From IMG/VR virus record IMGVR_UViG_3300033273_000398: a stretch of 64,000 bases of DNA; one strand, 5' to 3'. This DNA is from an uncultured virus (IMG/VR IMGVR_UViG_3300033273_000398) (lineage: Duplodnaviria; Heunggongvirae; Uroviricota; Caudoviricetes). The notes under the pieces are model-generated. The model made no database searches. It was not told the DNA's origin and saw nothing but the letters and a program-made list of their open reading frames with translations. A program made the translations under genes and the position numbers. Positions within the stretch are counted from its first letter, which is position 1. Every line of letters starts with the position of its first letter. Positions 6,437-32,080 of this stretch are shown here, piece after piece.

Positions 6437-9400
6437 ATGAAAAGAATTTTACTACTACTAACTGCGTTTGTCTTTTCAATAGGACTTAACGCACAGCTTA
6501 TACCTCCGGCTACTTCTCCGACGCTTCAGTCAATTGAGAAGTCAGTTGATACAAAGGTAAAAACAATTGCAGATAACAGATCAAAGGGCATACTTAAGTC
6601 AGGAATTGATAGAGTACCTGTTGTGGTTCATATTATTCACCGAGGTGAACCTATTGATTTTAATGACAGAGTTATAGAGCAACCATATGGTGCTAATATA
6701 TCATATGACCAGATTGTGTCTTCTATTGATAATCTAAATGACAGATTTGCTAATACATGGGTAAACTATTGGGAAGATCCCATAGAAGATGTAAACGCAA
6801 GACAGTCTCGTTCTGTTAATTCACAAGTTCAGTTTTCTTTTGCTAAAAGAAACCCAGAAGGAGGACCTACTGACGGTATCATAAGACATAATATTAATAA
6901 CATTGGCCTAGAAGAAGCTGAGGTTATAAAATTTATGGAAGAAGGTATCAATATCTTAGGATATGAAGGAACCGGATCTGATAAGGGTGCTAGCGAGATT
7001 GCTATTAAGGAAGCTGTAGGATGGGATCCTGATAAGTATGTGAATATTTATGTTGTTCCTGAAATAATGGACAATAACTCAACATGTGGAGTTGTTTGGC
7101 ATTCTACATTCCCTAATGAAAATAATAGTCAAGGAACAAGGGATGGTATTATAATTCAGGCAAATAGAATGGGTTATGGTGCGCATACCGGCTCTCTAAA
7201 AGGTTTGAATATAGATTTAGTACAGGCAATGGGTCAGTATTTAATGCTTTACCCAGTTTGGTATGGAAATATGACATGCGATGACGCAATCGATGCTTAT
7301 AATGCAGGTCAAGAAGATCCAACATATTGTGAAACAAACGGAGACCACGTTTGTGATACTGATCCAATTCCATGGGGATGTAACTCAAATTGTTTAGAGG
7401 ATCCATGTGCTACTTTACAAAATAATCCAATGCCAGCTGGATGGGAAAGTACAACTACAAACTACATGTATCCTTTGGGTAGTAATTTCTGCCCAGATCA
7501 CTTTACACAGGGCCAGATTGACAGAATGCAAGCATGCTTAGAAGGACCTAGAAATAGTCTTATTACTAATAGTGATGTTTTAAACCCCTTAAGCGTATAT
7601 GATTTAAAGGCAGATATAAGTATAGAAAGAACGTGCTATGATAATTATAAGCCTACTGTTGTAGTTACTAATACTGGATTTAATGATGTAACAAACTATA
7701 CAGTTTCAGTAGACATTACTAGTTTAGGAATTTCTATGTCATTTGATGAAAATGATTTAGGTCCTATATTAACAGGAACGACTTTAAACATCCCATTTCC
7801 TGAGCTAGTAATTCCAAATAATGGATTTTATAGCGTAGTTGCAAATGCAAGTATAACGACCGATGGGGTTCTAGAACCATTTACTGCTAATAATACAAAG
7901 ACTTATCCATTAACAAAGTACGCTGATGGATTTATAAACATAACAGCAACATATAGGGGCACATCAGGTGCACCTCTATATTCTATTAGAAATACAGATA
8001 GTGGAGATCTCGTCTTGGACACAAAGAAGGTTTTTAATAACATAGCATTTTCAAATAGAGAAGATATTCACGCTAACATTTTCTCTTTTGCAGGATTTTT
8101 AGAATATGGTGGACAATTAGCAGAGGAATACGGTATAGATGGTAATATAGCACCGAACGTAACTTATTGGATAGGAAATTCAGGTCCAGTAGATGAGCTT
8201 CCATATAATACGGTTACAGCAAGATACTATCTACCGCCCGGCAACTATGCAATTGCAATGTCTGCTAATAGAGTGACTTCAAATAGCGGTCTTTTTAGTA
8301 TATTCTCAACATATGGATGCGATCCAGCGCCAGATGGCACTGGATGTGAGCTAACTGTAGACGCATTAAGTGATCTTTTAACAGAACTAGATAGATTGTA
8401 TACTTTAAACGAATATTCTGGCCTTGATCCAGCAACAGGATCAAACCCATACGAATATTCTGCTGAATATGTAGAAATACCGTTTACTGTAGTAAATAAC
8501 AATAACTATTCAGAATCATGTTGCGTAGATTCTAATAGCGATGGCATATGTGACGGGTTTACTCTAGATGAATTAGATCCTAGTGTCACTATTCTTAAAG
8601 ATCCTAATCCACAGCCGACATCTCTTACTATGGGTGCCGTAGTTAATCGGGAAGGGGTTTCTCAGTTACTAGATGTTGAATTTCAGCTAGCAACCGATCC
8701 TGCATTTACAAATTTAATAGCTACTGAGTTAGTACCATATTCACAAGTAAATGAAGAGTACTTTCTTCTAAAGAAAGAAATATCGGTTGAAATAACAGGA
8801 CTTACTGAAGATACACAGTATTATGGTAGAGTTCGTATAAACGATAGAGGCCAAAATTATTACAGTTCCCTTATTGCAGAAAGAACTACGGTTGACGCAT
8901 GCGGTGGAGCATCTTCTATAACCTTTAACGGAAGAGACTATCCCCTTGTTACTATAGGTAATCAGTGTTGGTTTGCAAAGAACCTACAAAGTGATAGATT
9001 AGCTGCTAGCGCAGGAGGAACATCTCTAACAGATGGAACTCTTGCATTAGATTGGTGGACAGCCTTAGGAAACGGAGGTACTCCTGCATTTGCAGCAGTA
9101 GATGGACTAAATAATACTCAATTATGGGACAACGGGTACGGTTATTTTTATAACGTTACTGCTGCTATGACTGACGGATTGTGTCCTGATGGATTTAGAG
9201 TTCCTTATAATGCGGACTGGATGCAGCTTGATACTGCTTTAGGACTTATTAAAACCGGAACAAAATTAATGATAGAGTCAAGAGGAGGAACCAACTCTAC
9301 TGGATTTAGCGATGTTCTTGCAGGAAGAAGATATGCTGCAGGCGGATCAACTGTAATTGATAATCCAGCGACCGGTACCGTAAGTGATAATAACCAAGGC

Positions 9401-10600
9401 GGATATAGCGTATTCTGGACTCAAGATCCTTTTATTCTTCAACCGCCATTGGCTAACTGGACTTCTGCAGATTCAGCATATGGATTTAGAGACTTTGCAG
9501 GATTAGGAGCTTCAACAAATGGAGAACATTATGGAAATTACATGCATTTTGAAAACTTATGGTATTACAATGGATATGGTAATAGCGGCGGATATAGCGT
9601 TAGATGTATGAAGGGTGGAATTGGAGATAATGGCGCACCTCAAGTAGTAGATGTATGCACAAAGTATTCTACTTATGTAGATAATCCAAATGGAACTGGC
9701 CAAATTGAAAAAAAATATTGCAACTATAATCCAGCAGGTACAGAATTTAATGAATCTGGATGTAGCTTTCTAGATGAATGTGGTGTTTGCGGAGGAGAAG
9801 GAATTCCAGATGGATTCTGCAATTGTGAAGGAGAAGTACTAGATGCAGTAGGAGTATGTGGTGGACCTTGTCCACAAGATGCAGACGGTGACGGTATTTG
9901 CGACGTTGTATTTAGAGAAACTGGCGGAGATGAGTCTCTTTGTGACTATGAATACTCAATAAATTACCGCGGAGTCGATTACGCAATCGGTGGTTATGGA
10001 GGTAACTGTTGGTTCTTAGATAACCTAAGAACAAATCAATGGAGCGACGGGTCGTTTATAACATCGTCTGCTGCCGGATCTTCATGGGCAGCTAATTCTG
10101 AGTCAGAATTATCGATCGTTAATACTAGATCTGATTTAAGTCCACAAGATAGAGACCTTTACGGTTACTTGTATAACTGGTACGCTGTAAATGATTCTAA
10201 GGGACTATGTCCATCTGGATGGCATGTTTCTTCAGAAGATGATTGGGAAGGATTAGAAAGATCTTTGGGCATGCCTGAAAATGAAATAATTAGAAACTCT
10301 ATACGAGGTGAAGAAAGCGGATGTGGCCAGGTTCTTAGAACAGGTGCAATTGAGTTTAATTCTAAGCCAGCTGGTATAATTACAGGAAAAGACGGTAAAA
10401 TTAGAGGAAGTGGCTTAGAAGCATACTACTGGACTTCAACACCATGGAATACAATTAAGCTACAATATCAAGACAACGCGTATCACAGAGCAATACTAGG
10501 CGAAAACACAACGGATGGTATAGTTAGATATAATCACAGCTGGGGTACTTCTGGAAGTAAGAAGCATGGATTGAGCGTTAGATGTGTAAAGAATAAATAA
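6437..10600 (+). CDS. Secreted protein: inactive M43-like domain, CARDB/FN3-like, two FISUMP domains
   Basis: Signal peptide ending NA-Q; VPVVVH and NYM Met-turn retained; zinc motif replaced by QAMGQYLMLYP; two GxQCWF/CWF...LCPxGxxV...SVRC domains; Cys-rich DECGVCGG linker. Confidence 0.85.
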   Translation: MKRILLLLTAFVFSIGLNAQLIPPATSPTLQSIEKSVDTKVKTIADNRSKGILKSGIDRVPVVVHIIHRGEPIDFNDRVIEQPYGANISYDQIVSSIDNLNDRFANTWVNYWEDPIEDVNARQSRSVNSQVQFSFAKRNPEGGPTDGIIRHNINNIGLEEAEVIKFMEEGINILGYEGTGSDKGASEIAIKEAVGWDPDKYVNIYVVPEIMDNNSTCGVVWHSTFPNENNSQGTRDGIIIQANRMGYGAHTGSLKGLNIDLVQAMGQYLMLYPVWYGNMTCDDAIDAYNAGQEDPTYCETNGDHVCDTDPIPWGCNSNCLEDPCATLQNNPMPAGWESTTTNYMYPLGSNFCPDHFTQGQIDRMQACLEGPRNSLITNSDVLNPLSVYDLKADISIERTCYDNYKPTVVVTNTGFNDVTNYTVSVDITSLGISMSFDENDLGPILTGTTLNIPFPELVIPNNGFYSVVANASITTDGVLEPFTANNTKTYPLTKYADGFINITATYRGTSGAPLYSIRNTDSGDLVLDTKKVFNNIAFSNREDIHANIFSFAGFLEYGGQLAEEYGIDGNIAPNVTYWIGNSGPVDELPYNTVTARYYLPPGNYAIAMSANRVTSNSGLFSIFSTYGCDPAPDGTGCELTVDALSDLLTELDRLYTLNEYSGLDPATGSNPYEYSAEYVEIPFTVVNNNNYSESCCVDSNSDGICDGFTLDELDPSVTILKDPNPQPTSLTMGAVVNREGVSQLLDVEFQLATDPAFTNLIATELVPYSQVNEEYFLLKKEISVEITGLTEDTQYYGRVRINDRGQNYYSSLIAERTTVDACGGASSITFNGRDYPLVTIGNQCWFAKNLQSDRLAASAGGTSLTDGTLALDWWTALGNGGTPAFAAVDGLNNTQLWDNGYGYFYNVTAAMTDGLCPDGFRVPYNADWMQLDTALGLIKTGTKLMIESRGGTNSTGFSDVLAGRRYAAGGSTVIDNPATGTVSDNNQGGYSVFWTQDPFILQPPLANWTSADSAYGFRDFAGLGASTNGEHYGNYMHFENLWYYNGYGNSGGYSVRCMKGGIGDNGAPQVVDVCTKYSTYVDNPNGTGQIEKKYCNYNPAGTEFNESGCSFLDECGVCGGEGIPDGFCNCEGEVLDAVGVCGGPCPQDADGDGICDVVFRETGGDESLCDYEYSINYRGVDYAIGGYGGNCWFLDNLRTNQWSDGSFITSSAAGSSWAANSESELSIVNTRSDLSPQDRDLYGYLYNWYAVNDSKGLCPSGWHVSSEDDWEGLERSLGMPENEIIRNSIRGEESGCGQVLRTGAIEFNSKPAGIITGKDGKIRGSGLEAYYWTSTPWNTIKLQYQDNAYHRAILGENTTDGIVRYNHSWGTSGSKKHGLSVRCVKNK

Positions 10601-10624: not shown

Positions 10625-13600
10625 ATGTTTAAACTTAAGCAACTTTTAGCTCTTTCAGCTGCCATGTTAATGTGGTTATTTGCTGATGCACAGGTTATTC
10701 AAAAGCCTACAAACTTAGGTAGTATACAGAAGTATGAAAACTCGTTAAAGTCTACTACTAATATAAGAAAAGCAGCCATCGCTGCTGGTACAAAATCAAT
10801 TCCACAATATAGTGTGCCTGTTGTAGTTCATGTTCTTCATGATTTTGATGAGGTTGACATGACCTTTAGATATCAGCAACAGGAAAGAACAACTAATATT
10901 TCTACATCTCAAATTAGAAACGCTATACAAAACTTGAATGCTAGATTTAGAAATACCTGGGTTCGTAATTGGGACCCAAATGCTGATCCAGAATCAGTAG
11001 ATATGGGTATTGGATTTGAATTGGCTACAGTAGATCCTACGGGTCGTCCCACAAATGGAATTCTTAGATATGATATAAATAATCTTGATTTCTTAACTGA
11101 TGCTCAAAAACTAGAGTTCAGTAAATATGGAATCACGTTTGATGGAGCTTCTACTAATTCAGAAAATGCACTATTACAAGTTGGAACCCGAGGTATTGAT
11201 ATTGGACTTTTCCAAAATGAATTTAACTGGGATCCAAACTATTATCTTAACATATACATTATTCCAGAAGTTAACGATAGTAATGGCCAGCTTTGTGGAA
11301 ATACTTACGCAGTTATTAACGGACCATATTCCGATCCTTCAACAACAAGACCTCAGAATGAAAGTATAGTAATGCAGTCTAACGCATTTGTATATGGCGG
11401 TTTTGCAGAGGGCGGTTTTATAAGGTATAATCTACCGTTAACACAGGCTGTAGGTTGGTGGGTAGGTCTTTTACCTACGTATTATAACACAAATGGATGT
11501 CCAGGAGAAGATGACCCATACTCCGTTGAGTACCAGTGGAGAAATCCAGAATTGTGTGAACAACTCGGTGACAGAGTTTGCGATACACAGCCGGATCTTA
11601 GAACGTGTGGAGGTCAAGCAGGATGTAATGTATCTTTGGAAGCTCAAGGATATACTATGCCATCTGGTTGGAGAGGATCTAGAGATAACTATATGAACGG
11701 AAGTGAATATAACCTATATGCAAATCATTTTACAACTGGACAGAAGGAGAGGGCACTTTCTACAATGGAAACCATAAGATCGGAAATGCTCACCGCGGCG
11801 ACATCTAGAACAGCTAGAATAAACGTACATGATATTTCTGTAACTCTTTCTATCGATAGATTGGAATACGACGTTTATCGTCCAGTGGCCTTTATAAACA
11901 ATCATGGTGGATTTGATGAAGAAGATATGAATCTAACAATAGAATTAGTAGGAGGATCTTCTTATAACTTTCCTAGTTCAGTTTTAGGTAAAGCTAGAAT
12001 TGGAGATGAATTACAAGTTGTTTTACCTAAGTTTATCATAGAAGACGAAGGTACACATACGTTTAGAGCAACTGTTTCTCTAGAAGGCGGAGTCATAGAT
12101 TCCTTTACAGACGATAATACATTTGATTATACCTTTGAAAAAGTACACGATGGAATCGTGCAGTGGGACGGAACTTTTGGAAAGTATAATGGATTTGACT
12201 TTTGGATAAAGGATAACAATATACCAGATGATCCATCTACCACAGTTTATGACGAATCTATGGTTCTAGATGGAAGAAAGACATATAATAGCGCTACTTA
12301 TTCTAAAAGAACAAAAAGGCTTTCTGAAAATTATTTTATAGGATATGGTATTAATTCAGAGGGTGTTATTGTAAACCCATATAGAACCTCCTTTGTAGGA
12401 GGATATGAAGATACTACTCTAGTAAACGCAGACGGTGGTCTAACCGCAGATCAAGATTCTTTGCTAAGAGGAGGTTTTGAAGCTAGATATTATCTACCAG
12501 AGGGAGATTATACAATGTACTATAGAGGATGGTGGGGCGTATTGAATCCTGAGGCAGCATGTGAACAATTCGGAGGTACTAACTGTTCTCAGGTTTGGGA
12601 TAATTTAGCAGCAGTAGGACTAGGGGCCGGCTTTACTGGTAAGCCATTTTATAGAGACTATGATAATGATACTCTTTTTGATTACAGAAGCTCATGTACT
12701 ACTGGAGATTGTATAGTTGAAGCTAAAGTAAATGGCGCTACAGTATTTAACGTTGACTATTCAAATCAACCGGAATACGGATATGTTGGAGTTGCACCCC
12801 CTCTTACATATGAGTTTACTAGAATGGAATTATCTGATCCTAACGATATTAATAGTCCATTAGTAGAGGTAACATATGGAGGACAACCTTGTTGGAACCC
12901 GGGAGCAGATAATTTTGACTTACCAGGCGATGAAGACAACCCGCTAAAGGGTTGCTCTAGAGGATGCTTAGCTAACTGGCATTATGACAGTGTGCAGTTT
13001 ACAGTTACAGGTTTAGAAAATATAAGTGAAGTTACTTGTAACGATAATAATGGTGATGGTATGTGTGATGGTTACGATCCAGAAGAATTTGTCGCAGCCG
13101 TACTTACACTAGAAGATATTAAAGCAACTATGTATACTCTAAACCTTAGAGCTAGGGCGGTAAGTCAAGGTTTAACTAGAATAGACTCAGCTGGTTTTGA
13201 GTTAGCAACTGATATTGCTTTCCAAAACATAGTTGTAGATACTACTAGGGCTTATAACTTTGTAAGCGATACTTATTTCCCATATAAGCCTTACTTTGAT
13301 GCAACTATAGGTGGACTAACTCCTAATACTACATATTATTATAGAGCGTTTATTGTTGATAGAGGCGAAAGAGTATATGGATTTCCAAAGCAAACTTCAA
13401 CCAATGCAAGCGAATGTCCTTCAGAAACAATCGTATATAATGGCATAACTTATGATCTCGTTAGCGTTGGAAATCAGTGTTGGTTTAATGAGGACCTTAA
13501 AACTCTTCAAGATAACCAAGGAAACCTTCTTACTGATGTAACAGTTCATAATGGAGTTTCCTCAGTAGGTGTTCAAAATGGATATACTGCATATGGAATT

Positions 13601-15661: not shown

Positions 15662-15681
15662 TTACAACTATGAAAATAAGG

Positions 15682-15710: not shown

Positions 15711-15714
15711 ATTT

Positions 15715-15743: not shown

Positions 15744-15754
15744 CACGTTTAATA

Positions 15755-21822: not shown

Positions 21823-24800
21823 ATGGGGAAATTAAGATACTTTTTAACAGCTATAGCATACGTGCTATTTTCAACAGTGTATTCTCAGGGAGTATTTATT
21901 GAAGGACAAAATGCACCAGATCCATATAGTGCAGGACTTGCTAAAATAAACAAGGCAGTTGCAGATAGAACAGCAGCTAAGGAAGCTTCTAAACGTGCTA
22001 GTAATCTAAAGTCATTTGAAGAAGAAGACATTTGGACAATTCCAGTAGTTGTACATGTTTTGCATAAGGGTGGTCCTATTGACTTTGACATATATGAAAT
22101 AAGTGAAAAAGAAGCACTTCGTTTATTCAATGTTTCTAGGTATCAAATCACAGGAGCCTTAGATGAATTATCAGAAAGATTTAGAGGTACTAATACTAAA
22201 CCTAAAACAGTTTCAACAGGGGTATCTGACTTATATGGAAGTAATACATTAACTGAATTTGAACTTTCTCCAGTTTCAGCTGATATGGGAATTCAATTCC
22301 AGCTTGCTACTATAGACCCAGATGGTAATCCAACTGATGGTATTGTTAGACATGATATGTCAGGTAGTAAAGCATTTATGCTTTACGGTGCTCTTACACC
22401 GGGGTTCGCAGCTTTTGATTCTTTACAATATATTAGACAAGATGTGATTGATGAAAGCCTTGCTGCTGGATATCCAGTCTACGTAAATCAAATTGCAGAG
22501 GCATACGAATGGCCAGGACATGAGTACATAAACATATACTTAATCGCTGAATTAGATGATAATGATGGTGGATGTAATAGCTCAACAGCTAGGCTTACTA
22601 TTCCAGAAGGAGTAGCAGTAGGTGAAGGTATTAGTAATGGTTTTTTCTGGAATACTGGATTTTTTAATACTGGTAGCCGTAGAGCCTCTGGCAGTGGTGA
22701 TGTATCTAGATATGTAAAATCAATAGCAGGTGCATTTGGACTTTTACCAGTATGGACGGGATATCCAAGTTGTTCTTCTCTTTTAATAGAAAGAGACTCT
22801 TTATATGGCGATGGCGTCGCAGATACACCACCAAACGTACAAGGATGTGGATGTGGTTTTAGATGTGGAAATCCAGAAGACTATGATTATGTAAATGGTA
22901 TACCCGATTATACAAATTATATGGATGGATCTTGCGGTGCTAAATTTACTCCAGGCCAAGCTGATAGATTACGGGCTTATATGGAAGAGTATTGGCCAAC
23001 TTTTGCTATCTCTAATAATCCTAGAGTACAGCAAGTTGCCATGGCAGATATAGCGGTAGAGCTTACTGCAGAAAGGGTAGGCTATAACCTTTATTATCCA
23101 ACTGCAATAGTAAAAAACTTAGGCAATACAGATATAACTAACTGGAATTTAGAAGTTACAGTTCCGGGTTCAGGTATAAGTGTCACATATAATCAAAGTG
23201 ACTTTGGGACTCTCCCATCAGGTGAGCAATTTAATCTAAAGTTACCAGTCTTTCAGTTAACTGAATTTAAAGAATATGATATAGTAGCAAACGTATCTAG
23301 TGGGCAGAATGGCTATGGTGGAAATGATCAGTTTACCTATTCTTTTGAAAAGGTATTTGACGCACCAATATCAGTTAGTGCTTCCTATTATGATTTTGGA
23401 GTATTCTCACATTATCCACATTTAGGTTTAATTCCAGCACCTGGAAACGATCTTTATCAGGCATATACTGGTAATTCTTTAAACACCGCATTTGGTAATA
23501 TATCTGAATCAGAATATAATACACAAAACTTTTTAAAAGATCCTAGAAAGGGTACGCAGGGTAAATTTAATTGGTATAATGCATATTGGACTGAGACTGC
23601 AGAGCCACTAGATCCTGGGGCAAGTTGGGCTGTTAACGCTGAAGAATTAAGATCTGATTTTGCGTTAATAGAAGCTGGTGATTCTCTAATTTTAGAAGAC
23701 ACATATTATTTAACAGAAGGTCCTTGGCGAGTAATTTTAAAAGGAACTAATGAAGTACCTAGTTTCTATGATCTGGTTGCATCTTTACAGAATGGTACTG
23801 TAGAGTCACCTATAATATCTAGAATGTCAAATATCCGCACTAATTGTCAGAATCCAGATGCAGTTGGAATAGGTTGGTCTACTGGTTATGATGCTGAAGA
23901 CTTATGGTGTAATGTTGGTCTTCGTTTTAATGGAGATACTTTATTCTATGAGGACCAAGACGATTTATATGCAAAGATAGCTTCAATTTGTACTAATCCA
24001 GGGTATTCATCATATACCGGAGATTATCAAGACTGGTTTGAAATATGTCAAGCAGTTGGAAGTAATACATTTTTTCAGTTAGGCGGTTCTGCTATTAATC
24101 CAAACATAGTAGCACAGTCTGTAGATACATTAGAAGATGGATCTACTGTTATTAGACCATGGTTAGAATATGTAGTTAATGTGTCTCAAGACAATCCATA
24201 TCAGGCACCTTCTTGTTTAGCCGGTGGTGCTACTGGAGATGGAGTATGTCAAAATTTAGGAGCAACTAACTATAATACAGACATGACATTGGGGCATGTT
24301 TACCAAAGAAATGAAAGATCGTTACATATTACTACACAGATCAATAATCCAGGATATTATTCAGTAGATTCTATAAGATATGAATTAAGTACAAGTCCAA
24401 CATTTGATCCTGCATCTACAGAGGTTATATATGTAAGAGCAAACCATATTGGAAATAGAAATATAGGTCTTGTTGCTGCAGATCAAAAGCATAACACTAG
24501 ACTTCCAATAACAGTTGGTGTTTTTGATGATTTATCACCTAACACTTTATATTATTATAGGGCATTTGCAGGTAATACAGAAGTATCTGATCAATTTGTA
24601 ACAGTTGGATTTACATGTGAAGGTATTGGTGATTCTCTTGAGTATAATGGAATAATGTACGATGTAGTAAGTATCGGCGATCAATGTTGGTTTGCTAGAG
24701 ACTTGGCAACTGATCAGTTTGCAAATGGAGATCCTATTACAAGCGGTTCTTCTACTACACACCCTAGAGATTGGGCTGATAACTGGATTGAAACTATGGA

Positions 24801-27800
24801 TAACGATCCAACAATTCCTCTACAGGTAACTCCTAGAGCCAGATATAACGGTGAAGATGTTTCAGACAGAGGAAGTCTTTATAACTATGCTGCAGTCCAA
24901 GATGACCGCGGCATCTGTCCTATTGGATGGAGAGTCCCTTCACAACAAGATATAAATGAACTGTATGATGAAATTAGACAATTATATGGAACAAATGACC
25001 CAAAGGTATTAAAGCATGTGTTGTATGATTTTGATCACCCTGACGCTATTTCAAGGTACACAAATAATTTAGGGTTTAAATTTAGATCAGCTACTCATGA
25101 TTCATTTAAGAGTAATGATGTTATACCTAATAGGACATGGATGACAGATCAGACTTCAATATGGACAGGTAATGAAGCATGGCTACAAGATTTAACTGAT
25201 GTTGTACGCCCTGGTAAAACAATAGATGCGCATGCTATTGGAAGATTTGAGAAGGCAGTAACTTTTAATAGCCAATTCTATATTCCTGGAATGACAGAAG
25301 AATTTGCTTCTGATATAACAGATCTTGGTATATCTAATAGTGTTCAATTGCAATACAACACAAATAATGCATGGAATCCGTCAGGCCCCTCTAATACACT
25401 TACAGCAGGCGGATATAATGCTTCACCAATTGGTGTTATACCTTCAAGCTATCCAAGCGGAACTGGTCTTTGTGATCCTCCTTTCCCTCCAGTGACATAT
25501 GAAGATGCAGTAGCCCAGGGATGTGGCGATGGCCCAGCTATTGGTTTTAATACATTTATGCATACTGGAAGCTTTTATGGAGATGCTAATGTAACATATT
25601 GGAGATTAATGGGACTTCACCCAGATGCAGTTGACGAATTTGGAAATCCAGCGCCAGATACTTCATATACAAATGTATCTACAGATCCATATTATATGTA
25701 CAATGAAAAGAATTTTAGAAAAGAATCAGGAGAATACGCGTCATATAGATTACCAAAAGGATATAACTTTACTGATGCAATGTGGGTTTCTGACGCTTAT
25801 AAAGACCATAGAAAAGAACTTTGGTTATTCCATCCTGGTAAAGTAGCCAATGAAAGATTTAATATCAGTTCAACTAATGAAGGTATTGCCGTCTCCGCTC
25901 CATACTACGGAGGACCTTCTTATTGGGATTCTATTTATACTCAATTTAAAGAGCCTATTGGCGAAATATCAAGCGGTGTAGATGGATTTGGTGGAATCTT
26001 TAATGAGCAAGTACTTAGACCTCTTATTTATGCAGATGATTTTACATATGGTGAACTACAAAGAATAGGCAGATATAAAAAACGACTATTTATATACGAT
26101 TCACAAGAATGGATAGGATATACTAAAGAACAATCATGGAATCCTAAAATGAGAGGAAGTTTAAGTTATTGGACCGGAGGTGGTATTGCCGAAGGAAATG
26201 GATTGCCTAGTGAACATCCAGTAAGTGTTGCAGGAATGTCTAATCTAATAAATGGTCAGCCATGGAATAATGATCCTGATTCTCCATTTTGGCCATTGCC
26301 ACCTGGCGTAACAACTGATTGGGACGGATGGCCAAAGGGTTATTCTAATAAAATTATGTCTAAAACAAGAGATATTTCTGGTAATGAATTTGGCCAAGTT
26401 TTAGGTTTTAGAGATAACATAAATATGTTTAATGTCCCAGAAGGACAAAATTACCTACCTACATCACCTAATGTAAATGCTCCAGATCCTGATTCTACGG
26501 GTTGGGCAACGTCATGGAATTCTACTAACGGATGGTATGCTCTTAATAAGCTAGACGCTGGAATAAAGGGGAATTACTTAAATAATGAAGAACAATCTAT
26601 TGCAGAATCTGCGTTTATGGGATTACGTACACGTTGTGTTACTGGAGGTACTTCTGTTCCTGATGTAAATATAGGTACTTTACATAGCCAAAAATGTGCT
26701 ATTAAAGATACTTTAAGATGGGGATATCAAGGCGGATTTACAGGAGACCCGGTTACTGGTGAACCTGCAGATGCATATATTAGTTATTATGATAATGGTA
26801 TACCTCGTCCCATGCCGTTTAATACATTTGGGTCTTCAAACGTATTTGATTTTGATGAAAATGGAAACCCTAAATCTACAAGAGATATTATCTATGAAGA
26901 TTACGGCTACGTCGGTACTTCGGGCAGCGTCGTCAATCCACAGAGTCAACCCCTCCAAGAACAAAGAACACAGTGTCTTTCTTGGACCACGCCATGCAAT
27001 TTTAACTTGGCCCTACAAGAAGAGCCAACCGATGAAAATGGCCTAGAACTTGATATAATTGCAGACGATGATGTCTTTATTGCAGATGCATGCGGGGATT
27101 GTAATGCAGTTTCTGAATTCTTAAGTAATATAGAATCTGGACAATGCGATTGTGACGGTAATGTTATTGATGCGTTAGGTGTATGTGGCGGTGATTGTGT
27201 ATCTGATAATAATAACAATGGTATTTGTGACTTCTTAGAAGCATCATATCAACAAGGATGTGGTGATATTAATGCGGTTACTTATAGTGGACATACATAC
27301 GGTGTTATAAGTGTAGGTCCTCAGTGTTGGTTTACTGAAAACCTTAGAACCCCGATCTTTAATGACCAAACATTTATACCAGAAGTACAAGTTGCTTCTT
27401 CTTGGACTGGCCTAGAAACTCCAGCTAGGGCTGCATATGATAACCTATCCGCTAACTTCGAAAATAACGGATGGCTATATAACTGGTATGCAGTTGAAAC
27501 TGGAAAATTATGTCCATCTGGATGGCATGTTCCAACTGATGATGATTGGGCAGATCTAGAGAGACTCTTAGGCATGTCTGAAAATGAAGTAATAAGAAAG
27601 GCATTTAGGGGAACAGACCAGCTTATAGGTTCTCGTGTGAAACCAGGCGGAACTACATCTCTTAACTTAGATGCAGGTGGTCTAAGAGTAGGTAGATCTG
27701 GACTATTTAAAGAAGGAGGAGAAGGAGGATACTTCTGGACTTCTACTCCATCAAATGACAGAAGATCTTCTAGAAGAGAAACGGCTATACATAGAGCCGT

Positions 27801-27903
27801 TGACGATAACTCTACTGGTATCGCAAGATATTCTGATAGTTGGTCAACTGCTAAGACTATGAAGCATGGATTAAGCGTTAGATGTCTTTTAGACTCCGAA
27901 TAA
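21823..27903 (+). CDS. Secreted protein: inactive M43-like domain, two FISUMP domains (first greatly expanded)
   Basis: Start set at ATG 21823 (MGKLRY, matching MGKLKY of the previous paralogue); zinc motif replaced by KSIAGAFGLLP. Confidence 0.85.
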   Translation: MGKLRYFLTAIAYVLFSTVYSQGVFIEGQNAPDPYSAGLAKINKAVADRTAAKEASKRASNLKSFEEEDIWTIPVVVHVLHKGGPIDFDIYEISEKEALRLFNVSRYQITGALDELSERFRGTNTKPKTVSTGVSDLYGSNTLTEFELSPVSADMGIQFQLATIDPDGNPTDGIVRHDMSGSKAFMLYGALTPGFAAFDSLQYIRQDVIDESLAAGYPVYVNQIAEAYEWPGHEYINIYLIAELDDNDGGCNSSTARLTIPEGVAVGEGISNGFFWNTGFFNTGSRRASGSGDVSRYVKSIAGAFGLLPVWTGYPSCSSLLIERDSLYGDGVADTPPNVQGCGCGFRCGNPEDYDYVNGIPDYTNYMDGSCGAKFTPGQADRLRAYMEEYWPTFAISNNPRVQQVAMADIAVELTAERVGYNLYYPTAIVKNLGNTDITNWNLEVTVPGSGISVTYNQSDFGTLPSGEQFNLKLPVFQLTEFKEYDIVANVSSGQNGYGGNDQFTYSFEKVFDAPISVSASYYDFGVFSHYPHLGLIPAPGNDLYQAYTGNSLNTAFGNISESEYNTQNFLKDPRKGTQGKFNWYNAYWTETAEPLDPGASWAVNAEELRSDFALIEAGDSLILEDTYYLTEGPWRVILKGTNEVPSFYDLVASLQNGTVESPIISRMSNIRTNCQNPDAVGIGWSTGYDAEDLWCNVGLRFNGDTLFYEDQDDLYAKIASICTNPGYSSYTGDYQDWFEICQAVGSNTFFQLGGSAINPNIVAQSVDTLEDGSTVIRPWLEYVVNVSQDNPYQAPSCLAGGATGDGVCQNLGATNYNTDMTLGHVYQRNERSLHITTQINNPGYYSVDSIRYELSTSPTFDPASTEVIYVRANHIGNRNIGLVAADQKHNTRLPITVGVFDDLSPNTLYYYRAFAGNTEVSDQFVTVGFTCEGIGDSLEYNGIMYDVVSIGDQCWFARDLATDQFANGDPITSGSSTTHPRDWADNWIETMDNDPTIPLQVTPRARYNGEDVSDRGSLYNYAAVQDDRGICPIGWRVPSQQDINELYDEIRQLYGTNDPKVLKHVLYDFDHPDAISRYTNNLGFKFRSATHDSFKSNDVIPNRTWMTDQTSIWTGNEAWLQDLTDVVRPGKTIDAHAIGRFEKAVTFNSQFYIPGMTEEFASDITDLGISNSVQLQYNTNNAWNPSGPSNTLTAGGYNASPIGVIPSSYPSGTGLCDPPFPPVTYEDAVAQGCGDGPAIGFNTFMHTGSFYGDANVTYWRLMGLHPDAVDEFGNPAPDTSYTNVSTDPYYMYNEKNFRKESGEYASYRLPKGYNFTDAMWVSDAYKDHRKELWLFHPGKVANERFNISSTNEGIAVSAPYYGGPSYWDSIYTQFKEPIGEISSGVDGFGGIFNEQVLRPLIYADDFTYGELQRIGRYKKRLFIYDSQEWIGYTKEQSWNPKMRGSLSYWTGGGIAEGNGLPSEHPVSVAGMSNLINGQPWNNDPDSPFWPLPPGVTTDWDGWPKGYSNKIMSKTRDISGNEFGQVLGFRDNINMFNVPEGQNYLPTSPNVNAPDPDSTGWATSWNSTNGWYALNKLDAGIKGNYLNNEEQSIAESAFMGLRTRCVTGGTSVPDVNIGTLHSQKCAIKDTLRWGYQGGFTGDPVTGEPADAYISYYDNGIPRPMPFNTFGSSNVFDFDENGNPKSTRDIIYEDYGYVGTSGSVVNPQSQPLQEQRTQCLSWTTPCNFNLALQEEPTDENGLELDIIADDDVFIADACGDCNAVSEFLSNIESGQCDCDGNVIDALGVCGGDCVSDNNNNGICDFLEASYQQGCGDINAVTYSGHTYGVISVGPQCWFTENLRTPIFNDQTFIPEVQVASSWTGLETPARAAYDNLSANFENNGWLYNWYAVETGKLCPSGWHVPTDDDWADLERLLGMSENEVIRKAFRGTDQLIGSRVKPGGTTSLNLDAGGLRVGRSGLFKEGGEGGYFWTSTPSNDRRSSRRETAIHRAVDDNSTGIARYSDSWSTAKTMKHGLSVRCLLDSE

Positions 27904-27914
27904 TAAAGAATAGA

Positions 27915-29978
27915 ATGAGATTTTTACTTTCAATTATAACGATCCTTTTATGCGGTAGTTTAATGTCCCAGACTGTACCATGTGGCGCCTTAGATGATAG
28001 AACACCTGCTCAAATCGAAGTAGATGAAGCTTTATATAGAAAGAATCTAGCGCTTAAAAGATCCAGCCGAGCTTACAACGATGCTAAAATAATACCAGTA
28101 GTAATTAATGTTTTACATTCTGGAAACTTTGCGTATCAAGGAATGGGCGATAGGCCTTCCGAAGTACAAATTAATACTATGATGTCTGAATTAAATAATT
28201 ACTACGAGTCTGGTTTAAATTCTGCGTCACAAAGCGATGCACAAAATGATGCAGGATTTACATTTGTTTTAGCAGACAAGGACATAAATGGTAATCCCAT
28301 GGTTGGCTTTAGAGAATATAACCTACAAGATTATCCAGAATTTTCTAATTGCATATCTAAAACATATAATTATGTTACAGCAAATTGCGATGATGAAATG
28401 TCAAGTTTCTTTGGATACGAAAGAGACTACTATTTAAACATATTCTTTTTAGGAGTACAGGCAGAATCAAATGGCGGCGTTTATGGTGGCTGGGCTAAAT
28501 ATCCTCCAAGTAGCTACGGTTTATTTATAAACCCGTACTCAAGTGGATGGGGCCAAACAGCAACTCATGAGGTTGGTCATTATTTAGGACTTAGACATAC
28601 TTTTGAACAATACGACGAAGCTATTTGTGCTACTATTAATGAAACAGACTGTGAAACACAGGGAGACTTTGTATGTGACACTGGACCTACTATTAGATCT
28701 TTTTTATGTGTGAATTTATGTAATAATCCACTAGAAGATCCAGAAAACTTTATGTCATATGCTGGCTGTTCTCATCAAAAATTTACAGATGGGCAGATAG
28801 AAAGAATGCACATACAAGCAGAAACATTTAGACAAGATGAAATAGGACATGGTCAATTCCTTTATGGAACAACTTCTGGATGTACAGATCCTACAAAGTG
28901 TAACTATGACCCTAATGCTTTAACAGATGACGGGTCATGTCTTGACAATGATGCGCTGGGGGTCTGTGGAGGTACTTGCGCAGCAGACGTTGACTCTGAT
29001 GGTATTTGTGATGACGTTGATACATGTCTTACTGGTGATGACGTTGATAATGATGGCATATGCGACAGTATAGATCCCTGTATTGGTATTCCTGATTTAG
29101 ATAATGATGGAATATGCGATCCTGATGACCCATGCGTGGGTACTTTAGATGCATGTAATGTATGTAATGGACCGGGTGCTATTTATGAGTGTGGGTGTGC
29201 AGATATCCCAGAAGGAGATTGTGATTGTAATGGAAATCAATTAGATGCGCTTGGAGTATGTGGAGGACCATGTCTAGCAGATCTAGACGGTGATGGTATA
29301 TGTGATACCCAACAAGCTAATGCATGCGCAGGAGTATCAACGGTTTCTTATAATGGATTAGATTATAGTTTAATTGAGCTCGGTAATCAATGTTGGTTCA
29401 ATTCTAATTTAGCAACAGCTAGATTTAACGACGGGTCTCTTATACAAAAAGTAAACACACCTGAAGAGTGGATGATTCAATCTGGTAATGCAGTTCCCCT
29501 AATAGGATATGTCGATCATGATAACGTAGCTAATACAGCGACTTATGGTTCCTTTTATAATTGGTACGCAGTAAACGATTCGCGTGGCCTTTGTCCTACT
29601 GGTTATCACGTTCCTACCGATAAAGAATGGATGGAACTTGAAAGATATCTTGGCCTAGAAGAAAATCTTGTTACTAGAGAGGGTTATGGTTCATCTCCTA
29701 GTAACGTTGGCGCTAAGTTAGGAGACGGTGGAAATTCTGGATTTGATTCTAAATATGCAGGTCTATTAGTGGAATCAGACGGTTCTCAGAGAGATTTACA
29801 AAAAGCAGCATACTTCTGGACGTCTACCGAATATAACAATGTATTTGAAAGCGAAAGAAATAATGCATGGTTTAGAGCTATTTACAAAAACCTTTCTGGA
29901 GTTGGTAGATACAACGAAGCGTGGCAGACTGCGAACAATAAAGGTAATGGAATGTCAGTAAGATGTTTGAAAGACTAA
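27915..29978 (+). CDS. Secreted M43 (pappalysin/ulilysin-like) zinc metalloprotease with FISUMP domain
   Basis: Signal peptide MS-Q, PCG cysteine-switch-like prosegment, intact HEVGHYLGLRH, NFMSY Met-turn, DxDxDGxCD repeats, C-terminal FISUMP. Confidence 0.9.
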   Translation: MRFLLSIITILLCGSLMSQTVPCGALDDRTPAQIEVDEALYRKNLALKRSSRAYNDAKIIPVVINVLHSGNFAYQGMGDRPSEVQINTMMSELNNYYESGLNSASQSDAQNDAGFTFVLADKDINGNPMVGFREYNLQDYPEFSNCISKTYNYVTANCDDEMSSFFGYERDYYLNIFFLGVQAESNGGVYGGWAKYPPSSYGLFINPYSSGWGQTATHEVGHYLGLRHTFEQYDEAICATINETDCETQGDFVCDTGPTIRSFLCVNLCNNPLEDPENFMSYAGCSHQKFTDGQIERMHIQAETFRQDEIGHGQFLYGTTSGCTDPTKCNYDPNALTDDGSCLDNDALGVCGGTCAADVDSDGICDDVDTCLTGDDVDNDGICDSIDPCIGIPDLDNDGICDPDDPCVGTLDACNVCNGPGAIYECGCADIPEGDCDCNGNQLDALGVCGGPCLADLDGDGICDTQQANACAGVSTVSYNGLDYSLIELGNQCWFNSNLATARFNDGSLIQKVNTPEEWMIQSGNAVPLIGYVDHDNVANTATYGSFYNWYAVNDSRGLCPTGYHVPTDKEWMELERYLGLEENLVTREGYGSSPSNVGAKLGDGGNSGFDSKYAGLLVESDGSQRDLQKAAYFWTSTEYNNVFESERNNAWFRAIYKNLSGVGRYNEAWQTANNKGNGMSVRCLKD

Positions 29979-29980
29979 TA

Positions 29981-32080
29981 ATGAGATATTTAATCACTGG
30001 ATTACTATTAACTATATTTTCATTTTCTTATTCTCAAGAAGATTTAGGAGAGTGTGGTTCAATAGATCCTATACACACTTCAGATATAACTGAAACTGAA
30101 AGACATGCTATAATTCAAAGGGAGCAGAATGCCCTTCAAAACTTACAAAATAGATCTAGGGGCCTTGCTACAAAAAATGGATCTATTAACCAACAGGTTT
30201 ATATTCCAGTAATTTTTAATTTTGTACTTACAGAAGGAGCTCCAGAATCTTTATGGTATGACCAATACGGAAACTATACAAAAACAGAAGAATGGGCTTT
30301 AGGAATTTTAGACAACATTAACGAAAGATATTCTACAGGATTATGGGAGTCTACTACATATGAAACTGAAATTGACTATGGAAATCAGGGTGCTGATTTT
30401 AATGCTATACTTATACCTGGAAATGTAGATATGGACGGAAATCCACACGATTGGATACGTGAATTTACGCTTGAAGATAGTTTAGATGTTATGGATCCAT
30501 TTTACCATAGGCCAACTCCGGATGATCCTCCTAATTATGCATATAGTAGTTATCTAAACCTCGACTCTATTATTCCATATACTACACCTTGGTCAGAAGA
30601 TCCAACCGTAGGAGCGTTTACTGAAGATGTTAATTTTAATAGCGCTACTATGGTAAATACGTTTGCTTATGAACCATATGACTATTTAAACATATTTGTT
30701 TATGGACCTACATGCTGTGGATTAAGAAATGCAGGCGCAAACTTTCCTATGGCTGCTCTTGAAGATCCAATAGAAGGAAATATATGGACGGGGCAACATC
30801 TATTTTTCGGACCAAATACGTGGAACGGTTTTTATGAATCGTCATCCGCGCCCGAGGGTATAGTAGATTATACTGACGTTCCAGCACATGAAGTTGCACA
30901 TTTTTTTAGCTTAGGTCATAGTTGGAACGGTTTTTCATCATGTAGCGCTGCATATACAAATTACACAGAAGGAGATTGCTCAACAACCGGAGATAGAGTA
31001 TGTGATACTCCACCTACAAAAAACGATTATCATGATTGCTACTCTACCGACCCTGGCGACCATTGTCTAAGTTTTGCAATACCACATAATCCGTCTAATA
31101 TTATGGACTATACTAGAAAATGTGGACAAACGCATTTTACGCAAGGTCAGGCTGATAAAGTTAGGGCTAATTTCTTTGATACAGGTACAAATAGATACCG
31201 GATTATAGAACGGGGTTATGAAATAGTAGGACATGACGGCGGATGTTTGTCGGATGTTAATGCATGTAATTATAGTCCAGGAGGTTCCTTAGATGTTCCA
31301 TGTGAATATGTAGATGCCCTAGGCGTGTGTGGCGGCACGTGCGAATCAGATTCAGACGGTGATGGAATCTGCGACGGTGCAGTAGGTCCTAGTCCATGTC
31401 TTGGAATTAATTATATGTTATACATGGGAATTACTTATGACTTAATTGAAATAGGCGATCAATGTTGGTTCGGTTCAAATATAGAACAAAATCTATTACC
31501 GCCTGATCCAAATGCTGAAAATCCTAATGTAACGGTTTCTATTCCAATAGCTGCATCAGCTGAAGAGTGGATGTCATATTCTAATAATGAACAGCCAGCA
31601 TGCGCATATCCAGGAGGTTATGATCGAGTAGATTTAAGGGAACCATATGGTCTATTATTTAATGCATATGCAATACAGCAACATGATGATATATGTCCTA
31701 GTGGGTTTCATGTTCCAACTGATGATGACTTTAAAAAATTTGAAAGATATTTAGGCTTAGAAGAATTTAATATAGTTAGAAAGGGAAAAAGAGAATCAGA
31801 TGAAAATCTAGGTATCAGGCTAACAAAGGGAGGAGATACTGGATTTGAAGCATCTCTTTCTGGTTTAATAGTTGAGTCTGATGGCTCTCATAGAGATTTT
31901 GCACAAGAATCATACATTTGGACGTCTACTCCACATAGAAATAGATTTGCTAGTGAAAAAAACAATGTATGGTACAGAAATATTTCTAGAAACAATACTG
32001 GTATTGGTAGATATAATGAAGCGTGGCAGACTGCGAATAATAAGGGTAATGGCATGTCTGTAAGATGCTTAAAAGATTAA
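29981..32080 (+). CDS. Secreted M43 zinc metalloprotease with FISUMP domain
   Basis: Signal peptide YS-Q, ECG prosegment, intact HEVAHFFSLGH, NIMDY, C-terminal FISUMP. Confidence 0.9.
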   Translation: MRYLITGLLLTIFSFSYSQEDLGECGSIDPIHTSDITETERHAIIQREQNALQNLQNRSRGLATKNGSINQQVYIPVIFNFVLTEGAPESLWYDQYGNYTKTEEWALGILDNINERYSTGLWESTTYETEIDYGNQGADFNAILIPGNVDMDGNPHDWIREFTLEDSLDVMDPFYHRPTPDDPPNYAYSSYLNLDSIIPYTTPWSEDPTVGAFTEDVNFNSATMVNTFAYEPYDYLNIFVYGPTCCGLRNAGANFPMAALEDPIEGNIWTGQHLFFGPNTWNGFYESSSAPEGIVDYTDVPAHEVAHFFSLGHSWNGFSSCSAAYTNYTEGDCSTTGDRVCDTPPTKNDYHDCYSTDPGDHCLSFAIPHNPSNIMDYTRKCGQTHFTQGQADKVRANFFDTGTNRYRIIERGYEIVGHDGGCLSDVNACNYSPGGSLDVPCEYVDALGVCGGTCESDSDGDGICDGAVGPSPCLGINYMLYMGITYDLIEIGDQCWFGSNIEQNLLPPDPNAENPNVTVSIPIAASAEEWMSYSNNEQPACAYPGGYDRVDLREPYGLLFNAYAIQQHDDICPSGFHVPTDDDFKKFERYLGLEEFNIVRKGKRESDENLGIRLTKGGDTGFEASLSGLIVESDGSHRDFAQESYIWTSTPHRNRFASEKNNVWYRNISRNNTGIGRYNEAWQTANNKGNGMSVRCLKD

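Follow-up and report, generated by a model that had tools for sequence, protein, structure and literature searches.

Why would a phage devote 25.6 kb to six large genes of secreted peptidase type when four of them appear to have lost the means to cut anything? The question is raised by a 64,000-nt stretch of DNA from an uncultured virus (IMG/VR record IMGVR_UViG_3300033273_000398), referred to here as the window, in which positions 6437-32080 hold six consecutive, co-oriented open reading frames (ORFs) on the + strand, G1-G6, of 1387, 1678, 1990, 2034, 698 and 705 residues. All six follow a common plan. They begin with a signal-peptide-like stretch, continue with an M43 domain of pappalysin type and a Cys-rich linker of the DxxGxCGG pattern, and end in a FISUMP domain. 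A preliminary annotation made from the letters alone, hereafter the sequence-only reading, had described six tandem genes of this plan, with G1-G4 intact at about 1400-2000 residues; every ORF, motif and linker was recovered, and the four ORFs run to 1387-2034 residues. Our analysis shows, or nearly shows, that these genes belong to a phage-borne, exported, host-derived M43 family with a monophyletic dead branch under purifying selection, and that the array is a cassette-diversified form of a dead-plus-live pair. Two further genes beyond the six, G7 and G8, both live (55457-59238), bring the M43 family in the window to eight:

6437..10600, + strand: G1, 1387 residues; dead M43 motif QAMGQYLMLYP at nt 7223-7255, then beta-sandwiches; FISUMP1 at residues 822-1060 and FISUMP2 at residues 1169-1386, with the Cys-rich linker between them
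10625..15661, + strand: G2, 1678 residues; G1-like plan; dead M43 motif QAVGWWVGLLP at nt 11444-11476; extra C-terminal domain of ~95 residues
15755..21727, + strand: G3, 1990 residues; dead M43 motif VAIAQYFNLLP at nt 16793-16825; internal FISUMP interrupted within a long, unassigned middle; linker and a FISUMP at the C-terminus; a presence/absence cassette
21823..27903, + strand: G4, 2026 residues; dead M43 motif KSIAGAFGLLP at nt 22717-22749; internal FISUMP partial; linker and a FISUMP at the C-terminus
27882..29978, + strand: G5, 698 residues; live M43 motif HEVGHYLGLRH at nt 28566-28598 (residue 229); two DxxGVCGG linker repeats; FISUMP
29963..32080, + strand: G6, 705 residues; live M43 motif HEVAHFFSLGH at nt 30887-30919 (residue 309); linker; FISUMP
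55457..57706, + strand: G7, 749 residues; signal peptide; live M43 motif HEVGHALDLYH at nt 56318-56350; dockerin/EF-hand-like Ca-binding segment; no FISUMP; Pfam M43 63.8 bits
57790..59238, + strand: G8, 482 residues; signal peptide; live M43 motif HEVGHYLTLYH at nt 58531-58563; no FISUMP; Pfam M43 78.8 bits

The start of G4 is most likely the ATG at 21823 (MGKLRYF..., as in G3 and a relative) and not the TTG at 21799 that gives the 2034-residue ORF, and G5 probably starts at Met12 (27915), giving 687 residues.

The three His and the Glu of the zinc motif HExxHxx(G/N)xxH are all present in G5-G8, with G at the G/N position in G5 and S, D and T in G6, G7 and G8. In MAFFT alignments the four degenerate strings of G1-G4 fall column for column on HExxHxxxxxH, where Q/V/K, A/S, Q/W/G and P replace H, E, H and H, respectively; GDxVxDTxP, the Met-turn Met and FTxGQxxRM are retained. 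The sequence-only reading was therefore right that G5 and G6 keep the motif and that G1-G4 have lost its three His and Glu while keeping the Met-turn. According to the available text on lower pappalysins, the functional residues of these enzymes comprise the three zinc His, the general-base Glu and a prosegment Cys (cysteine switch), together with the Met-turn Met and a Tyr at Met+2 (tyrosine switch) (PMC11674741). A Tyr at Met+2 occurs in 8/8 live sequences (G5-G8, three live relatives and L003_18070) and in 0/8 dead ones (G1-G4, the giant of the related contig G001 and three distant giants). Similarly, a Cys follows soon after the predicted signal-peptide cleavage site in G5-G8 and in none of G1-G4. 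Judged from sequence, zinc site, catalytic base, substrate-clamping Tyr and latency switch have all gone from the dead branch, which has kept the fold and the Met. G1-G4 are M43 homologues but cannot be zinc peptidases of the M43 mechanism.

Homology of the dead domains to M43 had to be established by more than profile searches. Against the Pfam PF05572 (Peptidase_M43) gathering cut-off of 23 bits, G5 (44.5 bits) and G6 (30.7) were the only array members to score above it; G1 (22.4) and G3 (19.1) fell slightly below, and G2 and G4 gave no match. Direct BLASTP comparison connects them, however: over ~350-600 N-terminal residues, G1-G4 show homology to live M43 domains, G8 is the best partner of the dead G1 domain (E 2e-28, 29% identity over 323 residues), G1 also matches G7 (E 3e-19), and all eight paralogues are linked. 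For G1 residues 21-830, AlphaFold gave, from a 15-row alignment, a model with a mean predicted local distance difference test (pLDDT) score of 65 and with the M43 part mostly at 70-90. Foldseek returned promirolysin (6r7u, E 8e-12) as its best match, along with mirolysin (7od0), ulilysin (2cki/3lum) and PAPP-A, with TMt of 0.66-0.72 and E of 8e-12 to 1e-9 for the lower pappalysins, so the predicted structure matches the expected fold. The M43 part of a whole-G5 model reached pLDDT 80-93. A predicted complex of the dead G1 and live G5 M43 domains scored 0.02 against a mark of 0.32, which counts neither for nor against binding.

Since the domain families are typical of Bacteroidota cells and G+C content is even across the window (35-47%), so that composition cannot exclude a captured island, the array could in principle be mis-assembled cellular DNA or a decaying recent capture from a host. 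Its junctions and neighbours argue otherwise. The 45.8-kb IMG/VR contig G001 aligns collinearly with the window, at 95% nucleotide identity over 1-15772 and 94% over 27914-34625, and the first 15 kb of G001, upstream of the part shared with the window, encode a major head protein, clamp loader, exonuclease, large terminase (TerL) and tail sheath; the array starts ~7.5 kb downstream of the sheath gene. We also compared the window with Logan contigs from two DNA runs of two studies, labelled estuary metagenomes. The same junctions and gene order recur in them, and a contig of 8773 nt covers 5801-12572 at ~96% identity and extends ~2 kb further upstream, bridging the upstream junction, one of the two at which the sequence-only reading had advised checking read continuity. 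Stretches of G3 and G4 left uncovered by run X1, and runs with small word shares, were given no weight. In four more viral contigs that are ~40% identical (L012-L015) the order is guanylate kinase, X174, X178, array, phosphoesterase, sigma factor, where X174 and X178 are the two small genes that precede G1. Two RNA runs (X19, X20) hold contigs of 79-264 nt on G1, G2, G3 and an upstream gene, which are not proof of transcription.

Cellular genomes yielded no locus with the architecture of the array. A scan seeded with the FISUMP end found 90 relatives, of which the 80 kept all belong to Bacteroidota or neighbouring phyla; none of these loci extends into M43, their matches beginning at residue 330 or later and mostly at 470 or later. 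In large protein searches, full-length M43-FISUMP proteins made up 23 among the 120 matches listed, on contigs of at most 72.5 kb, and neither these nor the seven clusters of dead proteins include a cellular-named one; high-scoring partial matches were Flavobacteriales/Bacteroidota proteins from metagenome-assembled genomes, rich in the Cys-rich linker repeat. Because G001, the contigs of independent runs and L012-L015 share the junctions or neighbours, and because ratios of non-synonymous to synonymous change (omega, below) of 0.11-0.22 do not fit decay, both misassembly and recent capture of a host island can be set aside as having next to no chance of being correct. The genes are phage-encoded, as first proposed.

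The phage itself, as is largely shown, is a marine or estuarine jumbo myovirus of Bacteroidota, probably of Flavobacteriales. Five related records of 36-67 kb have CheckV completeness of 5-26%, which implies a genome of several hundred kb. The nearest TerL belongs to an uncultured 462-kb phage (44%); other close ones come from uncultured 630-640-kb phages, Lak phages and Tenacibaculum phages PTm1/PTm5 (32%).

Are the dead domains maintained or merely slow to disappear? Omega was calculated by the Nei-Gojobori method with our own script for the window and G001, a single genome pair with tens of substitutions per domain. For whole genes it was 0.128 (G1), 0.222 (G2), 0.116 (G5) and 0.222 (G6). 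The dead M43 domains gave 0.111 in G1 (22 synonymous and 10 non-synonymous changes) and 0.112 in G2 (32.5 and 14.5), and the live ones 0.235 in G5 and 0.231 in G6. On these values, which exclude decay and with it the neutral evolution that would have undercut the sequence-only reading, the dead domains are under purifying selection. Natural variants also keep the frame: the loss of 1 nt at 9338 is offset by a gain at 9340.

A search of G1 residues 1-520 against 5.8 billion proteins gave 26 matches. Seven are dead giants (96, 85, 81, 59, 42, 41 and 40% identity), all metagenomic and on contigs of at most 45.8 kb; across these orthologues the dead M43 domain and FISUMP2 are best conserved, at 47-52% identity versus 26-39% for the middle domains at the largest distance. 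The other 19 are live M43 proteins of cellular type with SprB/PKD repeats and sorting domains of the type IX secretion system (T9SS), the nearest of which are named Salibacteraceae and Cytophagaceae by NCBI. In a tree of 54 M43 domains from a quick IQ-TREE search, all 13 dead domains fall to the same side of a branch whose SH-like approximate likelihood ratio test (SH-aLRT) value is 100, and the 13 live M43-FISUMP domains to the same side of a second one (SH-aLRT 99). Because the dead domains form one clade, the tree supports a single inactivation before amplification. The sequence-only reading had reached this view from the Pro that all four dead copies carry at the third-ligand position; that residue is indeed found in G1-G4 and in P0001-P0007, with Gln in its place in three distant relatives.

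The dead clade groups with viral and cellular M43 domains that lack FISUMP and not with the live FISUMP clade, and BLASTP identity between dead and live copies is 35-52% in linker plus FISUMP and 22-27% in the M43 parts. Together, these observations suggest that the linker-FISUMP cassette was shared between two M43 lineages. It is largely shown, from such comparisons, that the array family derives from a host-type, T9SS-secreted pappalysin (M43B) whose sorting domain was swapped for the Cys-rich linker and FISUMP, and that its dead branch grew to 1300-2300 residues with extra beta-sandwiches and a second FISUMP and was kept as a putative non-catalytic binding module.

Support for the FISUMP domain is strong throughout. 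All six array members score 93-174 bits with PF09603 (Fib_succ_major; cut-off 33.9) and 52-116 bits with TIGR02145 (cut-off 41.65). A second FISUMP had been claimed for the dead copies; G1-G4 do have two stretches each, but the internal one is complete only in G1 and G2 and is partial or interrupted in G3 and G4. The CARDB/FN3-like domains also ascribed to them are weakly supported: FN3-type Pfam matches before FISUMP1 have E of 0.001-0.06, the G1 model contains confident beta-sandwiches at model residues 370-480 and 660-800, and a viral homologue has a Pfam CARDB match at the corresponding position following M43. Self-BLAST of G1-G4 returned no internal repeats, and the unassigned middle of G4 (residues 1055-1750) found no usable match in the ESM Atlas. 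The last ~95 residues of G2 (1582-1678; window 15386-15661) match phrog_677 (E 6e-19), with homologues in 333 phage records that are tail-fibre or baseplate-connector proteins, mostly of marine cyanomyoviruses (for example P-SSM2 PSSM2_028 and P-TIM68 gp087). The same domain has a weak cupredoxin-like Pfam match (E 0.046).

In the available text of two studies of diversity-generating retroelements (DGRs), Fib_succ_major is grouped with DUF1566 as a 'CLec2' class of DGR targets with a C-type-lectin fold; such targets carry lipoprotein signals and conserved Cys suggesting extracellular disulfides, and those of Bacteroides uniformis phages bear Fib_succ_major/DUF1566 motifs (PMC5758913; PMC8143477). 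FISUMP found no match among PDB sequences (phmmer, E up to 1). We considered whether the array genes might be DGR targets and rejected this reading: the window holds no template/variable repeat pair at the FISUMP ends, where the repeats are paralogue matches of 60-80% identity, and family scans found no reverse transcriptase domain in any of its ORFs of at least 150 residues.

How did six genes arise? In L012-L015 the locus between the same flanking genes consists of two genes only, a dead giant of 1294-1428 residues (motif EAVGTYLGLYQ or EAVATYLGLYQ in the three aligned) and a live M43-FISUMP partner of ~650 residues with the motif HE(V/I)GHF(L/M)GL(Y/F)H. It is thus shown or nearly shown, by comparison of these loci, that the six-gene array is a lineage-specific expansion of a conserved dead-plus-live pair. 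Array genes are 30-45% identical to their distant counterparts and flanking genes 55-73%.

The expansion appears to turn over by cassettes. G001 has G1, G2, one 2337-residue giant, G5 and G6, and G3 is absent. Its giant shares 65% protein identity with G4, at a synonymous divergence of 1.29 versus about 0.15-0.26 for the neighbours, which marks G4 as the hypervariable allele, replaced in G001. In run X4, a DNA contig passes straight from 15710 to 21775, a skip of 6064 nt that removes exactly G3. On either side of G3 stands a copy of an element of ~80 nt, made up of a strong terminator-like hairpin, TTGATATATA or GTGATATATA, and a common leader:

15680..15722, + strand: left copy of the ~80-nt repeat of the G3 cassette; hairpin at 15680-15709, then promoter-like TTGATATATA
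21746..21786, + strand: right copy bounding the G3 cassette; hairpin at 21746-21771, then the GTGATATATA motif

On a smaller scale, two DNA runs carry 145 unrelated nt, in frame, in place of a 142-nt segment in the linker region of G1 (9633-9776). This replaceable segment sits just before the first DxxGVCGG repeat.

The GTGATATATA at the right G3 boundary is likely the promoter of G4-G6, and related sites recur elsewhere in the window. At 31-48 nt before their starts, X904, X174, G3, G4, X240, X598, the collagen tail fibre and a small ORF each have the motif TGATATATA(A/G), and five of its sites stand directly behind a terminator-like hairpin and T-run:

872-881, 5330-5339, 15713-15722, 21777-21786, 38604-38613, 41652-41661, 44803-44812 and 62539-62548: TGATATATA(A/G) sites
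5369..6413, + strand: X174 and X178, two small genes of 174 and 178 residues without signal peptide, directly 5' of G1

The TGATATATA motif at 5330-5339 is 37 nt upstream of 5369, and a hairpin scan of the X174-G2 block found only weak + strand terminator-like hairpins ahead of 15680; X174, X178, G1 and G2 are probably co-transcribed from this site. Counterparts of X174 and X178 that are 66-70% identical likewise precede the dead giant in L012-L015. Only the placement of the motif is notable, since TTGATATATA with one mismatch is not over-represented (10 versus 16 expected), and a sigma-70 promoter scan of the window did not exceed shuffled sequences (79 versus 75 and 58 versus 55). TGATATATA(A/G) looks like a phage-specific, maybe late, promoter, read perhaps by the phage sigma factor encoded at 32679-33284. 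Because the motif is common to the array and the tail fibre, late expression of the array may be expected.

Export is indicated by N-termini with a positive start, a hydrophobic core and ...[AS]Q, judged by a hydrophobicity heuristic and by eye. They are found in G1-G3, G5-G9 and seven small ORFs; that of G4 falls just below the heuristic threshold yet is very much like that of G3. None is seen on the fibre-like genes X403, TF (the collagen tail fibre), X598 and X429. In addition, the M43 proteins contain 15-36 Cys each and Ca-binding-type DxDxDG(I/V)CD segments. The claim that the family is exported is borne out to this extent. By which route the proteins might travel further is less obvious, as G1-G8 contain neither a T9SS sorting domain of type A (TIGR04183/PF18962) or type B (TIGR04131/PF13585) nor a lipobox. 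A type-A C-terminal domain on G7 or G8 was considered and rejected: NCBIfam gave none at E up to 0.1, and our own profile of 12 such domains from cellular proteins reached 3.9 bits on G8. The gene that follows G8 has such a signal of the other type:

59235..62093, + strand: G9, 952 residues; signal peptide; tandem 26-residue Cys repeats GCTDPxAxNY..DDGSC; T9SS type-B C-terminal sorting domain

The sorting domain of G9 scores 64.6 bits with PF13585 (CHU_C) and 47 bits with TIGR04131 (cut-off 35), and its Cys repeats are family D5 of the window repeat scan. Because G9 carries this domain, the phage is predicted to place at least one protein on the T9SS of its host; no PorP/SprF-like partner of G9 was seen in the window. 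G7-G9 (55457-62093) form a second cluster of exported-type proteins. Further small ORFs with signal-peptide or lipoprotein-like N-termini lie at 4360-4860, 33600-34043, 51157-51498 and 62977-63447, and the small exported-type ORFs include a DUF1573 Ig-like protein (89 bits) and a 113-residue protein with 11.5% Cys. Overall, the phage appears to encode a sizeable putative secretome.

Relatives are widespread among uncultured viruses. A profile-seeded IMG/VR scan, carried out as the sequence-only reading had suggested, returned 61 loci with M43 relatives on 60 contigs, five of which have dead giants with FISUMP. On one 149-kb contig (L071), three live M43-FISUMP genes of 739-853 residues stand in tandem at 118-7101, all with HExxH, which may be an independent or a related expansion; the remaining contigs carry single or double live M43 genes of ~390-740 residues without FISUMP. 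A signal peptide starts 49 of the 55 viral M43 ORFs, typically followed by Q-(E)-E-C (the start was undefinable in the other 6), and nearly every viral copy has cysteine-switch zymogen features. Of 15 sampled viral loci, 9 have a holin or amidase/endolysin no more than 4.5 kb from the M43 gene; the sample comprises perhaps 8 related groups, with the lysis association in only 3-4 of them. The lysis gene adjoins M43 or is one gene away in L018, L022, L033 and L062; at other sampled loci M43 follows tape-measure or giant tail genes or stands beside glycosyltransferases. In L018, L022, L033, L062, L016 and L054, which are smaller viral contigs, an exported live M43 gene is placed between giant tail-type genes and a holin or amidase. 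This arrangement prompts the thought that Bacteroidota phages might use a protease when they disrupt the outer membrane. GenBank phages (50,697 records) contribute little: G8 matches one 7.6-kb fragment and G5 has one weak FISUMP match, and a 'major paralogous domain' gene of Microcystis phage Mel-JY01 is a small isolated FISUMP gene in uninformative context.

What might such proteins do? The sequence-only reading had proposed a phage-encoded exported protease/pseudoprotease system, and each element of that proposal survived testing. As to function, we tentatively favor envelope-directed binding and cleavage, an account that is possible but that we hold with well under even confidence. The array genes would be transcribed late from the tail-fibre type of promoter, and their products would pass through Sec to the periplasm, fold there oxidatively with stabilization by disulfides and Ca, and be released with the burst at lysis; release only at this point would be expected because the array proteins have no T9SS or lipoprotein signal. 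The live G5-G8 would cut host proteins of the envelope or surface. With an inactivated cleft at one end and a FISUMP lectin at the other, the dead giants would grip the same kind of targets uncut; glycans, too, would be among the targets, and the variable G3/G4 cassettes would track strain-specific surface variation. As a net effect, receptors would be masked or destroyed and the envelope loosened, so that release becomes easier, progeny are not lost on debris or infected cells, and competitors are excluded.

Several points weigh against this account. The location, target and activity of the array proteins are what we infer from their sequences, and giants without a T9SS or lipoprotein signal may not reach the surface before lysis, so masking of receptors on the outer face is not straightforward. 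The signal peptides are not SignalP predictions, the omega values come from one genome pair, and the tree is not the product of a careful search. In the whole-G5 AlphaFold model the linker and FISUMP have pLDDT below 50, which leaves the lectin-type fold to the literature grouping only. The fibre/baseplate-type domain at the end of G2 and the promoter-like motif shared with the tail fibre would fit a role in the virion equally well. Finally, tail-fibre and lysis genes are neighbours in siphoviruses anyway, the lysis association comes from few groups of loci, and no lysis genes of this phage were found within the window.

The last of these considerations lead directly to the other explanations. 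The giants could be virion fibres or receptor-binding proteins, with FISUMP and the dead protease as recognition heads and G5/G6 as receptor-destroying enzymes. Their size (1400-2300 residues), a C-terminal binding domain of a class found in DGR-diversified phage and bacterial surface proteins, the G2 domain with its 333 fibre/baseplate records, the shared promoter-like motif, the proximity to the sheath gene and the hypervariability of the G3/G4 cassettes between 95%-identical phages, which is typical of receptor-binding proteins, would all be accounted for. Tailed-phage virions assemble in the cytoplasm, however, and the Cys content and Ca-binding linkers of the giants point to extracytoplasmic folding. 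The strongest argument against structural proteins is the signal-peptide-like N-terminus, kept even at ~40% identity and missing from the fibres X403 and TF; moreover, the giants lack the 150-residue anchor of those fibres (BLASTP) and match no PHROG structural family beyond the small G2 domain. We consider a virion role unlikely, although in a variant of it periplasm-matured giants could attach to particles only after lysis. Of similarly low probability is an extracellular arm of the phage, in which periplasm-folded pseudoprotease-lectins and their live partners are released at the burst and act outside the cell; there they could join progeny virions as periplasm-matured fibres, or coat and strip neighbouring cells and debris and so give progeny access to fresh receptors. 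The dead protease cleft would in that case be a new phage-borne module of protein recognition, derived from a host enzyme and diversified by terminator-flanked cassettes.

A function in lysis is about as doubtful. Here the live M43 proteins would complete or speed up lysis by cutting the proteins that tie the outer membrane to the peptidoglycan, or further proteins of the envelope, as a protease-based counterpart of spanins, and the dead giants would hold or time them. The holin and amidase/endolysin neighbours, the zymogen features of nearly all viral copies and a precedent in Listeria (Mtz/Tim, below) speak for it, but the sample lacks independence, many phages have tail and lysis modules side by side in any case, and no lysis gene adjoins the array in the window. 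It would also leave four giant, lectin-bearing dead copies and their variability between strains unexplained. Slightly less probable again is a nutritional or auxiliary-metabolic purpose, by which extracellular proteolysis would be boosted during a long jumbo-phage infection or after lysis, with lectins tethering the enzymes to particles and the dead copies serving as substrate scaffolds or as adhesins that hold the infected cell on a particle. The cellular relatives are secreted degradative M43 proteins of particle-associated Bacteroidota, one of which, cytophagalysin, is gelatinolytic according to the available text (PMC11674741), and the dockerin/EF-hand-like Ca-binding segments as well as the GMP reductase/IMPDH-family and guanylate kinase auxiliary genes of the window would be in keeping with it. 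Against this stand the loss of the T9SS sorting domain, which would keep the enzymes out of the medium before lysis, a cassette turnover too fast for a degrader of bulk protein, and a cost of four dead giants that is hard to justify.

Comparison with known systems shows where the array is familiar and where it departs. Pseudoenzymes retained as binding modules are well known in eukaryotes; we found no described case, in open-access papers and bioRxiv, of a phage that maintains and diversifies a pseudoenzyme family. Receptor-blocking or receptor-destroying exported phage proteins such as Llp of T5 offer an analogy only. The proposed logic is common to both, in that an exported protein neutralizes the receptor and thereby shields progeny and keeps competitors out, but such proteins are small and single with known targets, whereas the array family comprises eight large paralogues. 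The lower pappalysins (M43B), including mirolysin of Tannerella forsythia, ulilysin and cytophagalysin CPL1, share the catalytic-domain fold of the array M43 domains. The live copies resemble them in signal peptide, prosegment Cys, HExxHxxxxxH and Met-turn with Tyr, and the array proteins resemble CPL1, as the accessible text describes it, in their multi-domain beta-sandwich tails (PMC11674741). In contrast to these enzymes, the array is encoded by a phage, has a Cys-rich linker and FISUMP instead of a T9SS C-terminal domain, is arranged in tandem with cassette turnover and includes four members that are conserved without any catalytic or latency residue. FISUMP/DUF1566 targets of DGRs (the Legionella LdtA class and those of Bacteroides uniformis phages) likewise have a C-terminal, Cys-conserved FISUMP on exported or surface proteins and, in the text available, serve as variable binding heads in both bacteria and phages (PMC5758913; PMC8143477). 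Unlike them, the array owes its diversity to duplication and to gain, loss and replacement of cassettes, and its FISUMP is fused to a protease or pseudoprotease.

The closest functional precedent is Mtz/Tim of Listeria monocytogenes, described in the available part of the source as a phage-origin secreted metzincin with a TIMP-like lipoprotein that sensitizes cells to phage lysis and affects neighbouring cells (PMC8235301). Like the array, it combines a phage-associated secreted metzincin with a non-catalytic partner at the cell envelope. It differs, so far as that description goes, in its Gram-positive host, in its metzincin family, in a partner that is an inhibitor-like substrate and not a dead paralogue, and in being a single pair in a cryptic element without lectin domains; the comparison is by description and not by homology. 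The domains of the array are thus known families, with this one described precedent, within the text available, for a secreted metzincin of phage origin. The open-access papers and bioRxiv preprints searched describe no phage pseudoprotease array, M43-linker-FISUMP architecture or terminator-flanked cassette dynamics, nor do they report how widely exported M43 genes are spread among uncultured Bacteroidota-type phages. The earlier statement that phages have no described equivalent agrees with this literature and with GenBank phages, but needs narrowing, as exported live M43 genes on their own are common in uncultured viral contigs.

The coding capacity of 25.6 kb, the purifying selection and the cassette turnover are together the signature of a host-interaction function with an effect on fitness. 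The array points to a means, so far undescribed, by which a phage may influence the envelope or the surroundings of its host cell. Exported zymogen-type M43 proteins also emerge as a common, unremarked accessory of uncultured Bacteroidota-type phages, often near lysis genes. Phage receptors on T9SS-bearing hosts are often T9SS cargo, and spanin-type functions in phages of such hosts are, to our knowledge, poorly known; the M43 target could reveal how Bacteroidota phages handle the outer membrane and surface layer of these cells. In Flavobacterium, according to the available part of the source, phage resistance maps to gliding/T9SS genes.

The rest of the window is in keeping with a large phage genome. 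It contains 30 ORFs of at least 150 residues, 29 of them on the + strand, the sole exception being nested within a 904-residue gene. Other genes include the sigma factor and the collagen-repeat tail fibre TF (1985 residues) mentioned above and 15 transfer RNA (tRNA) genes (3688-3858, 34065-36401 and 51053-51139), of which 12 form a single 2.3-kb array that is broken by an HNH/endonuclease VII-like ORF at 35258-35713. The guanine-nucleotide auxiliary genes, guanylate kinase and a member of the GMP-reductase/IMPDH family (PF00478, 381 bits), are found at 4857-5330 and 36448-37491. Finally, the fibre genes X403 and TF, at 43522-44733 and 44850-50807, are 72% identical over their first ~150 residues, a common virion anchor, and TF is built of internally repeated units of 224-300 nt.

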